DNA from: an uncultured archaeon
Lineage (GTDB): Archaea > Asgardarchaeota > Lokiarchaeia > Sigyniarchaeales > SOKP01
NCBI GenBank assembly: GCA_964486045.1
Contig: CAZALK010000002.1
Coordinates: 192,001 to 256,000 of the forward strand
Direction: 5' to 3'
DNA: 64,000 nt
Part shown: piece by piece, positions 9,547 through 14,566 of the stretch
Position numbering within the stretch: position 1 is the stretch's first letter
Layout: every line of letters starts with the position of its first letter
The notes under the pieces: generated by a model
Told to the model about the DNA's origin: nothing
The model's input: the letters and a program-made list of their open reading frames with translations, nothing else
Databases searched by the model: none
Position numbers and translations under genes: made by a program

Positions 9547-12231
9547 TTAATTTTTCACTTTTAGCATGTTTCTTAGAACAGTGTGCAAAATTCCCCCATT
9601 TTGATAATATTCAATATCTATAGGAGTGTCTAATCTTGCAATTACTTTAAATTTTAAATCCTCCCCATTGAGTCTTCTTGCAATTACATTTAATTCCGAT
9701 AAGGGTTCAATATCCTTGATTCCAAAGATACTAATGGTTTCTTCTCCTGTTAATTCTAGGCTATTTGCACTTTCACCATTTTTAAATTGAAGTGGTAAAA
9801 CCCCCATTCCAACTAGATTACTTCTATGAATTCTTTCAAATGATTCGGCAATTACTGCTTTTACTCCTAACAGTTGCGTACCTTTTGCGGCCCAATCACG
9901 TGAGCTCCCCATACCGTAATCTTTACCTGCAATAACAATTAAGGGAGTGTCAGAATTTATATACTTCATAGCTGCATCATAAATAGGCATTATTTCCTTT
10001 CTGGGATGATAAATTGTCCAACCTCCTTCTCTATTAACAAGAAGATTTTTAATTCGGATGTTACCAAATGTCCCACGCGTCATAACTTCATCATTTCCTC
10101 TTCTTGATCCAAATGAGTTGAAATCTTCAACATTTATTCCCTTTGATTTTAGATATTTTCCCGCAGGCATATCTACAGGGATTGCACCAGCGGGTGAAAT
10201 ATGATCTGTGGTGACACTCCCTCCCAAGAGTGCAATTACTCGCGCTGCTTTTATATCTGGAGACGATGGTCTTTCTAAAGGAAAATCTATAAAGAAGGGT
10301 GGTTCTTTTATATAGGTTGAATCTTCTTCCCATAGGTATACATCTTCTTTTGGAGGTTTTAGTTCATTCCATAAGTCCCAACCTTTAAAGATCTCACCAT
10401 ACTCTTTATTAAATAATTTAGCAGTGACAAATTTATCACTCAAATCTGTAATTTCACTTGAGTGTGGCCAAATATCTTTTAAATAAACAGGGTTTCCCCT
10501 CGGATCATTTCCTAATGGTTCATTTTCCATGTTTATTGCTACAGTACCTGCTAAAGCAAACGCTACAACTAAAGGTGGGGATGCAAGATAATTTATTCTT
10601 GTGTATGGACTAATTCTTCCTTCGAAGTTTCGATTTCCGCTTAGAACTGATGCTACTACCAAATTTTTATCCTGAATTTCATTAATTAATTCAGTTTTTA
10701 ATGGACCGCTATTTCCAATACAGGTTGTACAACCAAAACCTACTAAGTTGAAACCTAATTCTTCTAAAAAATGTAATAATCCAGCATCTTTTAAATAATC
10801 AATTACAACTCGGGATCCAGGAGCAAAACTAGTTTTAACAAAACTTTTAACTTTTAAGCCTTTTTCTAAGGCATTTCTTGCTAGAAGTGCAGCCCCGATC
10901 ATTACAGCTGGGTTCGACGTGTTAGTGCAAGAAGTAATAGCGGCAATGACAACTGAGCTATGACTTAAGTTATTCCCATCTGATATTTTTTCAAGTTCAT
11001 TACTCTTATTAAGTGTATTCTTCATATGCTCTGTAAAGTTTGTCTTCATCTTATTTGCTGGAATACGATCTTGAGGACGTGTTGGACCTGCTAAACTTGG
11101 TTCAATATTACTTAGGTTTATCTCTAAATTTTCACTAAAATTTGGTGGGGGAGCACTATCTGTATAAAACATTCCTACTCTCTTTGCATATTGCTCAACA
11201 AAATCAATATTATCTTTTTTTCTCCCACTATTTCTTAAATAATTCAAGGTTTCTTCTGTGATGGGAAAATATCCCATTGTTGCACCATATTCGGGAGACA
11301 TATTTGCAATGGTTGCTCGATCTGCAAGGCTTAATTTTTTTAGTCCTGAACCATAAAATTCGACAAATTTCCCAACTACACCAAATTTTCTAAGAATTTG
11401 AGTAATAGTTAATACAATATCTGTAGCGGTTATTCCTTCTTTGACATCCCCTATTAACTTAACCCCAACAACTTTAGGAACATTCATATATATGGGTTGC
11501 CCTAAAATGACCGCTTCGGCCTCTATCCCCCCGACACCCCAGCCAAAAACTGACAACCCATTTATCATCGTTGTATGGGAATCAGTTCCAACTAAAGTAT
11601 CTGGGTATCCGATTAGACCATTATTTTCTTCTTTTAAATGAATGACAGATGCTAAATATTCTAAGTTAACTTGATGACATATTCCTCTACTCGTAGGTAC
11701 AACCCTGAAATTTTTATAAACAGATTGTGCCCATTTAAGAAATTTATAGCGTTCATGATTACGTTCCATTTCCACTTTTTCATTCAAATCTCTCGCATCA
11801 TTTGATCCATAATAATCAACTTGAACTGAATGATCAATAACCAAGTCTACTGGTATTTTAGGATTTATATCTGAAGGATTTCCACCTGCCCTCTTTATGG
11901 CTGATCTCAGAGCAGCTAGATCTACAACTGAAGGAACTCCTGTAAAGTCTTGTAATAATACTCTTGATGGAATATAGGGTACCTCACTTATTAAATCACT
12001 TTTAGAGTCCCATTGACATACCATAAGTAAGTGATCCATCGTAACACGCTTACCATCTAGATTTCTTAAAAGATTTTCAAGTAATATTCTATGGGAATAT
12101 GGTAATTTGTTTGGATCACCTAATTTTAAATCCTTTAATTTTTGAATATTATAAATCAAAACATCTCCTACTTTGGATTTAATAGTATCCTTAACCTTTG
12201 ATTTAATTTCTTGCTCATCCATTATTCTCAC
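9547..12231 (-). CDS. acnA: Aconitate hydratase A (IRP/AcnA type)
   Basis: LLQDFTGVP, DHSVQVD, GICHQVNLE, GTDSHT, AITSCTNTSNP, GCTTCIGNSG, TTDHISPAG, GSSRDWAAKG. Start may be ATG 12222. Confidence 0.95.
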   Translation of the reverse strand: MRIMDEQEIKSKVKDTIKSKVGDVLIYNIQKLKDLKLGDPNKLPYSHRILLENLLRNLDGKRVTMDHLLMVCQWDSKSDLISEVPYIPSRVLLQDFTGVPSVVDLAALRSAIKRAGGNPSDINPKIPVDLVIDHSVQVDYYGSNDARDLNEKVEMERNHERYKFLKWAQSVYKNFRVVPTSRGICHQVNLEYLASVIHLKEENNGLIGYPDTLVGTDSHTTMINGLSVFGWGVGGIEAEAVILGQPIYMNVPKVVGVKLIGDVKEGITATDIVLTITQILRKFGVVGKFVEFYGSGLKKLSLADRATIANMSPEYGATMGYFPITEETLNYLRNSGRKKDNIDFVEQYAKRVGMFYTDSAPPPNFSENLEINLSNIEPSLAGPTRPQDRIPANKMKTNFTEHMKNTLNKSNELEKISDGNNLSHSSVVIAAITSCTNTSNPAVMIGAALLARNALEKGLKVKSFVKTSFAPGSRVVIDYLKDAGLLHFLEELGFNLVGFGCTTCIGNSGPLKTELINEIQDKNLVVASVLSGNRNFEGRISPYTRINYLASPPLVVAFALAGTVAINMENEPLGNDPRGNPVYLKDIWPHSSEITDLSDKFVTAKLFNKEYGEIFKGWDLWNELKPPKEDVYLWEEDSTYIKEPPFFIDFPLERPSSPDIKAARVIALLGGSVTTDHISPAGAIPVDMPAGKYLKSKGINVEDFNSFGSRRGNDEVMTRGTFGNIRIKNLLVNREGGWTIYHPRKEIMPIYDAAMKYINSDTPLIVIAGKDYGMGSSRDWAAKGTQLLGVKAVIAESFERIHRSNLVGMGVLPLQFKNGESANSLELTGEETISIFGIKDIEPLSELNVIARRLNGEDLKFKVIARLDTPIDIEYYQNGGILHTVLRNMLKVKN

Positions 12232-12246
12232 AATGTAATCTAAATA

Positions 12247-13491
12247 CTATCTTTTATCAATGTTTTCATACTTCTTATCTAATTCACCCACGTATCTAAG
12301 GCGTGGCCTTATGAGTTTATTATCCGAAAGTTGCTCGAGGGCATGAGCAACCCAGCCAGCACTGCGAGAAGCAGCAAATAATGGGGTAAAAGATGCTGTA
12401 GGTATACCTAATGCATGTAATGCTCCAGCAGAATATAAGTCTACATTAGGATAAATATTTTTGGTTTTTATCATAAATTCGGTAAGGGTTTCAGTCATCT
12501 CATAAATATTATCAATTTCCCCTTTATGAGTTTCATGCTCTGGATCAGGAATCTTTTCTATAATATCAGGATCACTCCATAAATTTTTAGATATTTCGCG
12601 CAATATTCTTGCTCTGGGATCCCATGTTTTATAAACTCGATGACCAAATCCCATGATTCTTTCCTTCTTCTCAAGCTTGTTTTTAGCCCAAGGTATAACT
12701 TTATCCTTTTTCTTTATTTCTCCTAACATAAGATTTATTACTCTTTCATTAGCACCACCATGGAGTGGCCCTCGAAGGGTACCGATAGCACTGGTGATTC
12801 CGCTATATATGTCTGATAATGTAGAAACGGTAACTCGACAAGAAAAAGTACTACTATTTATTGAGTGATCCATATGACAGATTAAAATCTTATCAAAATA
12901 TTCTTCAAATTCCTTGTTCGGGATTTTTCCTGTCATCATATAATAGTAATTACAAGAGTGTGAAAGATCTTCAGAGGGTTCAATTAAAGGTAAATTGCCT
13001 TGAATTCTATGTGAGAATGCTAAAACCGTAGGGATTTTTGCTATAATTCTTATTCCTTTTCTTATATTGGCTTCTTTAGAGAAATCGTAATCATCTGGAT
13101 CATATAGAGACAAAGCAGAAATTGATGTTCTTAATAATTCTATCCTTGTTGTATTTCTAGGAAAACTCTTTAATATTGTAACAATATTGTCTGGAAGTTT
13201 TCGCTCTTTAATTAATACATCTGTGAATGTCTTAAATTCTGATTTTGTCGGAAGTTTTCCATAGATTAATAAATAGGCAACTTCTTCAAAGGATGAATGT
13301 TCGACTAAATCTTTTAAAGGAAAACCTCGATAATAAAGTTTTCCATTCATACCATCTATGTATGTTATAAAGCTTTCATCTACATATATCCCTACTAAAC
13401 CTTTATAAGTTTTTGAACTATCAAGATCGCATAATTTTGCGTCTCCACCCGAATCATAATCATCTTTAATAAAACGCTTATCTCCTTTCAT
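12247..13491 (-). CDS. gltA: Citrate synthase (2-methylcitrate synthase not excluded)
   Basis: GKLYYRG, GPLHGGAN, MGFGHRVYK, DPRA, YPNVD. Lies 15 nt upstream of acnA on the same strand. Confidence 0.9.
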   Translation of the reverse strand: MKGDKRFIKDDYDSGGDAKLCDLDSSKTYKGLVGIYVDESFITYIDGMNGKLYYRGFPLKDLVEHSSFEEVAYLLIYGKLPTKSEFKTFTDVLIKERKLPDNIVTILKSFPRNTTRIELLRTSISALSLYDPDDYDFSKEANIRKGIRIIAKIPTVLAFSHRIQGNLPLIEPSEDLSHSCNYYYMMTGKIPNKEFEEYFDKILICHMDHSINSSTFSCRVTVSTLSDIYSGITSAIGTLRGPLHGGANERVINLMLGEIKKKDKVIPWAKNKLEKKERIMGFGHRVYKTWDPRARILREISKNLWSDPDIIEKIPDPEHETHKGEIDNIYEMTETLTEFMIKTKNIYPNVDLYSAGALHALGIPTASFTPLFAASRSAGWVAHALEQLSDNKLIRPRLRYVGELDKKYENIDKR

Positions 13492-13649
13492 TTTCTTTTA
13501 TTATTAATAAGTAAATGCGTGAATTTACCTTAAAGTAAAAAAGGTAGATATTTAATTCTTAGGCTTTTAAATCATTAATTTTAGGTTGGTTCTTAGAATA
13601 TAATTTAAAAGATAAATTCTTAAATTTAGTTAAAATAAATACTTTAATC

Positions 13650-14165
13650 ATGACCGAACTACACATTTCAACTACAAATAAAGGATTACCACTCGGAACT
13701 AAAGCACCTATGATTGACGAAGAAGATATTGATGGAGATAACGTGAATTTAACTAAATTGTTGGAAAAACACAATGGAGTTTTAATCGATCTATTTAGAG
13801 GAAGTTGGTGAATTCATTGCAGAAAACACCTCACATATTTAAATGAAAATTTATCAATACTAGAAAAACATAATATTAAGTTAATAGCTATCGCAATAGA
13901 TCTTCCTGATAAATTAATAAAAATGAAGTATAAAAACAACTTTAAGATACAGTTTATTACTGATCGCGCCGGAAGAATTAGTAAGGCATATAATGTTTTC
14001 TTAGATAGAAAGAGTGCTGTCCATGATGGATTGCAAATAAGCCATGCGATACCCTCGAAGTTTCTTGTCAATAGAGAAGGAAACATCGTTTGGGAATATA
14101 TCGGAGCAAAAACAGATAGACCATCAATCGAATTAATTGAAGATGCAATTATAAAATATCTATAA
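13650..14165 (+). CDS. Peroxiredoxin-like (AhpC/TSA, thioredoxin fold) selenoprotein, Sec at codon 54
   Basis: ATG 13650 is in frame with TGA 13809-13811 and with the track ORF at 13923. Reads GLPLGTKAP...LFRGSW-U-IHC...ITDRAGRISKAYNV...AIPSKFLVNREGNIVW, i.e. U-x-x-C at the CxxC site. SECIS-like hairpin follows. Confidence 0.92.
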
Positions 14166-14172
14166 TTTATAA

Positions 14173-14240
14173 TCCCATTAAGAATGATTTATGTGCATAA
14201 ATGATTGGCATGTGATGACAACCTTGCAAGGGTTCTGGGA
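14173..14240 (+). promoter_or_regulatory. Eukaryote-like SECIS element in the 3' UTR
   Basis: AUGA (14184-87), N11, AA(A) (14199-201), GA (14217-18). 8-bp helix UUAUGUGC/GCAUGUGA, UGAU/UGAC non-Watson-Crick core, basal helix UCCCA/UGGGA. Confidence 0.85.
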
Positions 14241-14314
14241 ATAAATGTTTCTTTTTTTTGAACGAATATATTAAGATTTAAAAATAAATAAAACTTAATG
14301 ATTAGCAATCCAGC

Positions 14315-14566
14315 TTGGCAAGTGTAAATAAAATGGATAAAATAGTAAAAATTAAAATAGTAAAAAAAGTCTTGCTCTTTATCTTTATATTAATAGCTAC
14401 GTTCAGCCTGTTCATGTTTATGGGTAGTTTTTTTATTAGTGAATTGCCTAGCACAATATCTTCTGGAATTTATTTCATCTTAGTATTCACAATGAGCATA
14501 TCTGCGATTGTAGTAAAATATGTCGGAGATATAGTAATTGTAGCGTTAGATAGAGATAGAGAATAA
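14315..14566 (+). CDS. Small two-TM membrane protein, unknown function
   Basis: Two hydrophobic segments in 83 aa. Start uncertain. Confidence 0.5.
   Translation: MASVNKMDKIVKIKIVKKVLLFIFILIATFSLFMFMGSFFISELPSTISSGIYFILVFTMSISAIVVKYVGDIVIVALDRDRE

Follow-up and report, generated by a model that had tools for sequence, protein, structure and literature searches.

A UGA-containing PrxL selenoprotein gene followed by a lokiSECIS element in a Sigyniarchaeales (Lokiarchaeia) genome

The window analysed here, a stretch of 64,000 nucleotides from an uncultured archaeon of the order Sigyniarchaeales, contains on its forward strand a gene, here named prxL, that consists of one 171-codon frame running from an ATG to a TAA, with a TGA as its sole in-frame stop (Table 1). 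Under translation table 11 this frame is cut into a 53-aa head (13650-13811) and an 80-aa tail (13923-14165), and the latter agrees with the original prediction, according to which the ORF track reports only the last 80 residues. The residues surrounding the TGA, with U standing for selenocysteine (Sec), are D-L-F-R-G-S-W-U-I-H-C-R-K-H, and translation of the frame (FRGSW-U-IH-C) bore out that a single TGA falls at the first Cys position of the redoxin motif. The further claim that 171 residues are obtained on read-through, with coding sequence on both sides, was upheld by purifying selection spanning the TGA (see below) and by two domain matches that run across it: Pfam AhpC/TSA (PF00578, E 1.7e-18) covers residues 16-148 of the product, and Redoxin (PF08534, E 1.4e-12) likewise crosses the TGA and extends to residue 159. 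The ATG start is kept in orthologues and conservation starts there; a 5′ extension of the frame was excluded, as stops are located upstream in the orthologues and conservation is found only from the ATG onwards. Since its N-terminus is hydrophilic, the product is probably cytoplasmic.

Table 1. Features of the prxL locus and of its recoding element; positions refer to the window.
Feature	Position	Strand	Remarks
Aconitase (acnA)	9547-12231	-	Upstream, divergent from prxL
Citrate synthase (gltA)	12247-13491	-	Upstream, divergent from prxL
Divergent spacer, citrate synthase/prxL	13492-13649	.	158 nt; putative promoter
prxL CDS	13650-14165	+	171 codons including Sec54; stop TAA 14163-14165
UGA codon 54	13809-13811	+	Predicted Sec; position 1 of the U-x-x-C redox box
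TGC codon 57	13818-13820	+	Predicted resolving Cys of the redox box; sole Cys of the product
Whole SECIS element	14173-14240	+	MFE fold and conserved flanks
Basal helix	14173-14177 / 14236-14240	+	UCCCA with UGGGA
lokiSECIS core	14184-14218	+	Pattern, covariation, covariance model
AUGA of core	14184-14187	+	
Stem arms of core	14188-14196 / 14208-14216	+	
Apical loop of core	14197-14207	+	11 nt, terminal G; AUAAAUGAUUG
GA of core	14217-14218	+	
Side hairpin	14220-14223 / 14231-14234	+	AACC with GGUU
T-rich run	14248-14259	+	Putative archaeal terminator of monocistronic prxL mRNA

The arrangement of prxL in divergence from gltA-acnA across 158 nt, which had also been part of the original prediction, was confirmed by the ORF coordinates. 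The spacer contains an A/T box (tcttaaattt) located ~25-35 nt 5′ of the prxL ATG, and it lacks a Shine-Dalgarno sequence ahead of this start codon. Downstream, and convergent to prxL, are genes for an FMN-dependent dehydrogenase and a class II fumarase. Judging from its sequence, the T-rich run behind the gene is likely to be the prxL transcription terminator, and T-runs are also found 3′ of the SECIS in homologues. Between prxL and the FMN dehydrogenase there is a small ORF (14315-14566, +) encoding 83 hydrophobic residues, which is 74% identical at one orthologous locus (G013) and for which a Pfam search returned no family.

A homologue search in 40 related genomes yielded 36 matches at E <= 2e-18, all of which (36/36, from more than 20 assemblies) carry one or two in-frame TGA codons; with TGA read as U, their motif is either W-U-x-x-C or W-U-x-x-U. 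These matches comprise: (i) group A, the prxL orthologues, found in six genomes of the genus, with 78-84% identity and the motif F-R-G-S-W-U-[IV]-[HL]-C; (ii) group B, with ~48% identity and F-R-G-N-W-U-S-H-C; and (iii) group C, with F-R-G-T-W-U-x-Y-U and therefore two Sec. The TGA is present at the same codon in the orthologues of five other assemblies, of which four are full-length and one, the sixth group A gene (G013), is frameshifted close to codon 140. In the five full-length group A genes the TGA is intact without exception (5/5), while dS values of 0.5-2.8 place their synonymous sites near saturation, so that the retention of TGA at this codon is not due to chance. Their dN/dS ranges from 0.09 to 0.21 for codons 1-53 and from 0.03 to 0.09 for codons 55-171, and prxL is thus under strong purifying selection on both sides of the TGA (~0.1 before, ~0.05 after). 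Because the same TGA recurs across independent assemblies, a read error is excluded. A genome-wide reassignment of TGA was excluded as well, given that this codon terminates 531 of the 3052 long frames of the genome (17%) and hence acts as an ordinary stop.

Besides prxL, the genome harbors a group B paralogue (W-U-S-H-C; G000:C14:124319-124804, +) and a group C paralogue (W-U-Y-Y-U; G000:C12:150974-151462, +), each with its own lokiSECIS, and it is possible that the two Sec of the latter form a diselenide. In several relatives (L017, L019) groups B and C are arranged in tandem. The genes next to the paralogues encode a Ras-family GTPase, a Sec23/24-like protein and an EamA transporter, and inspection of these gene neighbourhoods provided no redox partner and no functional clue. 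Five additional PrxL homologues (P0032, P0033, P0036, P0038 and P0079), all on short contigs, appear with W-x-x-W or W-x-x-C at the redox box; the W in these public sequences is a TGA mistranslated as Trp, probably owing to a TGA=Trp code used by the gene caller, and the proteins are mistranslated selenoproteins.

By its published definition (PMC4989117), a lokiSECIS consists of an AUGA, a stem of 9 bp, an apical loop of 11 nt whose first part is A-rich and whose last nucleotide is G, and a GA. Exactly this geometry is found in the 3′ UTR of prxL, with the core placed 19 nt past the TAA stop and 375 nt 3′ of the UGA. The same architecture was present 3′ of all 21 homologues examined (21/21), using a pattern that required 8/9 pairs, and in the alignment of these homologues compensatory changes on both sides were observed in each of the nine stem pairs (9/9). 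In this alignment 87.8% of the stem cells are paired, a share that drops to 28-58% on sliding the partner. The covariation score of the stem was reached by none of 500 shuffles (0/500). The first (outermost) pair is mostly non-canonical (13/21 homologues) and is read here as part of a kink-turn core. Conservation among the 21 homologues also includes a 5′ flank, AAUCCC...UAAGAAUGA, and a 3′ flank, GACAACC..GGGUU.UGGGAUU, and the MFE fold of the prxL 3′ UTR is a three-way junction.

Rfam returned no SECIS family, whether the entire window was searched at the gathering threshold or positions 13500-14400 with E up to 10, a type of failure that was likewise encountered for Lokiarchaeota SECIS by Mariotti et al. 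(PMC4989117). The single-sequence fold energy of the 3′ UTR was not better than that of shuffled sequences (z 0.32), and the identification of the SECIS is therefore based on comparative evidence. A covariance model (R1), trained on PrxL elements only, scored 57.5 bits (E 4.7e-8) at the prxL SECIS; across the 5.18-Mb genome this model retrieved the three PrxL copies and a site just 3′ of a Sec-containing selD.

A plain SECIS pattern scan of the whole genome gave only 16 matches, at least eight of which are located 2-26 nt behind TAA- or TAG-ended frames that contain TGA. Three other TGA-containing frames were observed. A 158-aa frame (G000:C25:38565-39041, +; L045:1566-2042) has two adjacent TGA codons, in V-H-A-D-U-U-A-D-V, both of which are kept in 34/41 related genomes and 9/11 genera; a lokiSECIS-pattern match lies 8 nt past its stop, and it belongs to no Pfam family. 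A 72-aa Cys/Sec-rich, zinc-ribbon-like frame (G000:C11:149175-149393, +; L047:1676-1894) contains four in-frame TGA, kept in six other genomes of the order, with a SECIS-pattern match 10 nt past the stop. Finally, a 49-aa frame (G000:C3:142778-142927, +; L048:1279-1428) includes one TGA, in G-S-G-N-U-S-C-I-N, and has a good SECIS-pattern match 11 nt behind it; no Pfam match was obtained for this frame.

The components needed for Sec insertion, on which the original prediction depended, were all found in the genome. A tRNA-Sec was detected with 63.5 bits, with the anticodon TCA according to ARAGORN; it sits on another contig, and a tRNA search of the window accordingly returned none. The gene for SepSecS (E 9e-117) adjoins the tRNA-Sec, and that for EFSec, whose best PDB match is Methanococcus maripaludis SelB (1e-82) and which contains the Pfam domain aSelB_III, is 5 kb away. 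EFSec, tRNA-Sec and SepSecS are clustered within ~7.5 kb (G000:C15:132874-140357). PSTK is also encoded, as are two selD genes, both of them Sec-containing by virtue of an in-frame TGA.

An exhaustive HMMER search returned 1530 relatives of the prxL product. Among aligned domains of distant homologues, 126 of 139 have Cys at both redox positions, typically within Y-R-G-x-W-C-P-x-C, which places a Cys opposite the TGA, as would be expected from the original prediction. A full-length Cys orthologue was absent from the results of a word-indexed protein search, in which all ‘full-length’ matches had the TGA read as W. An alignment of 44 sequences shows complete conservation of R50, G51, W53, U/C54 and C57 and near-complete conservation of P20, D105, Y114, P135 and R157. 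The AF2 model of the product (pLDDT 92.2) matches both the Prx/BCP/AhpE and the ResA folds (TM 0.67-0.89), with the BCP/PrxQ and AhpE peroxiredoxins as closest folds (TM 0.72-0.89) and ResA close behind.

The active site was compared with both families by alignment. UGA54 is placed opposite the first of the two Cys in the W-C-x-x-C of ResA, and C57 opposite the peroxidatic Cys of PrxQ (PDB 2cx3). Of the Prx motif P-x-x-x-T/S-x-x-C only the Cys is kept in prxL, which reads R-G-S-W-U-I-H-C in this place. The catalytic Arg that in Prx precedes x-F-[IV]-[IV]-D is replaced by P135: in the alignment with 2cx3, the Arg of the latter (a-k-R-a-v-F-i-v) falls on P135 of prxL (a-i-P-s-k-F-l-v), a residue that also aligns with the cis-Pro of ResA. 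The prxL product thus combines a peroxiredoxin-like scaffold with a thioredoxin/ResA-like active site, and the original designation as peroxiredoxin holds for the fold but not for the active site. Since the catalytic Pro, Thr and Arg of Prx are absent and a cis-Pro is present, the product is more likely to be a selenol/thiol oxidoreductase than a classical peroxidase.

Taken together, prxL is a real selenoprotein gene of a kind already described. It very probably constitutes a monocistronic gene for a cytoplasmic PrxL selenoprotein of 171 residues, in which UGA54 would be decoded as Sec by tRNA-Sec and the archaeal EFSec under the direction of the eukaryote-like lokiSECIS in the 3′ UTR. The analysis establishes the gene with its recoding signal, the fold of the product and the Sec machinery of the genome; the chemistry and the substrate described next are inferred. 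Sec54, predicted to occupy the N-terminal, nucleophilic position of the W-U-x-x-C box, where helix 55-66 begins, opposite the cis-Pro P135, would attack an oxidised substrate, which may be a disulfide, a sulfenic acid or a peroxide. Cys57 would resolve the intermediate, leading to an intramolecular selenenylsulfide, which could then be re-reduced by a thioredoxin-type reductant or system. A role as disulfide/sulfenate reductase is more likely than classical peroxidase chemistry.

Other explanations of the locus have to be weighed against this. In a true peroxidase, H2O2 or organic peroxides would be reduced via a Sec-selenenic acid, and the position of the gene beside gltA-acnA would serve to shield the Fe-S aconitase. 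We consider this unlikely, even though the overall fold is closest to that of BCP/PrxQ and AhpE (TM 0.8-0.89), C57 aligns with a peroxidatic Cys, and Sec is an efficient reductant of peroxides in GPx. The absence of the Prx signature, with a ResA-type cis-Pro instead of the Arg, argues against it. As for its genomic context, prxL is located within a TCA gene cluster, and among the six clade A genomes citrate synthase is found upstream in four (4/6) and the FMN dehydrogenase downstream in at least four (>=4/6), the latter being the more constant neighbour of clade A prxL; however, in the other two genomes an M28 peptidase takes the place of citrate synthase, prxL appears to have a promoter spacer and a terminator of its own, and the paralogues lie beside unrelated genes. 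With citrate synthase upstream in only 4/6 clade A genomes, the originally proposed protection of aconitase found little support, and prxL is at best weakly linked to this enzyme. It is quite improbable that clade A PrxL represents a specialised third paralogue tied to the TCA cluster, where it is flanked by acnA-gltA on one side and by the Cys-rich FMN dehydrogenase-fumarase pair on the other; if this were true, the protein would be, for example, a dedicated reductant or repair factor of a TCA-cluster enzyme and not a general redox protein.

The remaining alternatives concern the UGA itself. Reading of this codon by other means than the Sec system, through near-cognate insertion of Trp or Cys or through leaky termination, would result in a product with Cys or Trp at this position or, for the most part, in a 53-aa peptide. 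This is highly improbable: the W that some gene callers put at these codons (P0032 and P0033, W-x-x-W), which could be quoted in its favour, is an artefact of the TGA=Trp code used on short contigs, a Trp replacing the invariant redox Cys would have no activity, and a covarying SECIS behind every copy is accompanied by the complete Sec machinery. That prxL could be a pseudogene, or that a sequencing error could have turned a Cys codon into TGA, leaving two dead fragments, is suggested by the splitting of the frame under table 11 and by the frameshift in the G013 orthologue. This reading is effectively refuted by the recurrent TGA in all of the close matches, the low dN/dS on either side of it at near-saturated dS and the conservation of the SECIS.

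With regard to known families, the best structural matches of the prxL product are the BCP/PrxQ and AhpE peroxiredoxins (PDB 3hjp, 1xvw, 2cx3), from which it differs by having R50 and U54 in place of the Pro and the Thr/Ser, and P135 in place of the Arg. ResA/TlpA/DsbE proteins (PDB 1st9, 4nmu) possess a W-C-x-x-C box with the nucleophile at its first position, where prxL has U, and their cis-Pro motif P-T/S-x-F-L-I aligns with A-I-P-S-K-F-L-V of prxL; alignment to 4nmu and 3c71 indicated that both the box and the cis-Pro loop have their counterpart in prxL. On the other hand, the scores of the product, 56 bits with the NCBIfam ResA model NF002854 (cut-off 170) and 25 bits with TIGR00385 (cut-off 123), fall below the family cut-offs. 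The extracytoplasmic anchor of ResA/TlpA/DsbE proteins is missing from the prxL product, which lacks a membrane anchor as well as a signal peptide; its overall structure is nearer to Prx.

The product corresponds to ‘Prx-like 1’ of the GOS classification (PMC2398784), which comprises bacterial/marine selenoproteins of pfam00578 with UxxC (Zhang & Gladyshev 2008, PMC2398784). The Pfam family, the Sec position, the R-G-x-W-[U/C]-x-x-C motif and Pro135 are common to prxL, ‘Prx-like 1’ and the YRGxWCPxC Cys homologues, at an identity of 25-35%. Many of the Cys homologues have N-terminal signal-like hydrophobic segments, which are not found in the prxL product, and bacterial ‘Prx-like 1’ genes carry a bacterial SECIS within the CDS, in contrast to the eukaryote-like SECIS in the 3′ UTR of prxL.

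The nearest relatives have been reported from Lokiarchaeota, in agreement with the original prediction that a Prx-like selenoprotein is known there: PrxL.2 (UxxC) and PrxL.1 (UxxU), both with lokiSECIS (Mariotti et al. 2016, PMC4989117). A ‘Prx-like protein’ has also been listed for 43% of Sec-using Asgard genomes (Huang et al. 2024, PMC11227280), and a close database homologue is labelled Promethearchaeota. This label, like the Ras-family GTPase and the Sec23/24-like protein encoded beside the paralogues, is consistent with a Loki-type Asgard archaeon. With Loki PrxL (PMC4989117) prxL shares the AhpC/TSA fold, Sec at the first redox-box position, the lack of Cys outside the redox box (C57 is the only one in 171 residues), the lokiSECIS behind the CDS and a host with Sec machinery. 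Family, SECIS and host range having been published, prxL raises no new question. Its value is in part that of an annotation correction: public protein sets hold only truncated forms, and the entries concerned, tails of 94-117 aa or heads of 53 aa, agree with the expectation that standard pipelines miss the gene.

In a maximum-likelihood tree that comprised group A, groups B (UxxC) and C (UxxU) of the same genus, and Cys homologues, the three Sec groups were monophyletic (100/99) relative to the Cys homologues, and clade A (98/95) was the sister lineage of B plus C. This clade, found in 6/25 genomes of the genus that were searched and in none outside it, has only 42-50% identity to groups B and C. 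Its SECIS begins after the spacing given above, compared to at the stop in B/C, so that the basal helix is located in the UTR and does not code for a C-terminal N-P-K/N as it does in B/C; its apical loop, AUAAAUGAUUG, is less A-rich than the A7-UGAG of other PrxL. Based on these sequence comparisons, prxL is a new member of the PrxL family, possibly forming a separate paralogue clade set apart from groups B and C of the same genus. The Asgard selenoproteome thereby gains a third clade of PrxL paralogues, whose SECIS is placed slightly differently; this selenoproteome is of interest because no other archaeal SECIS is as closely related to the eukaryotic element as that of Asgard.
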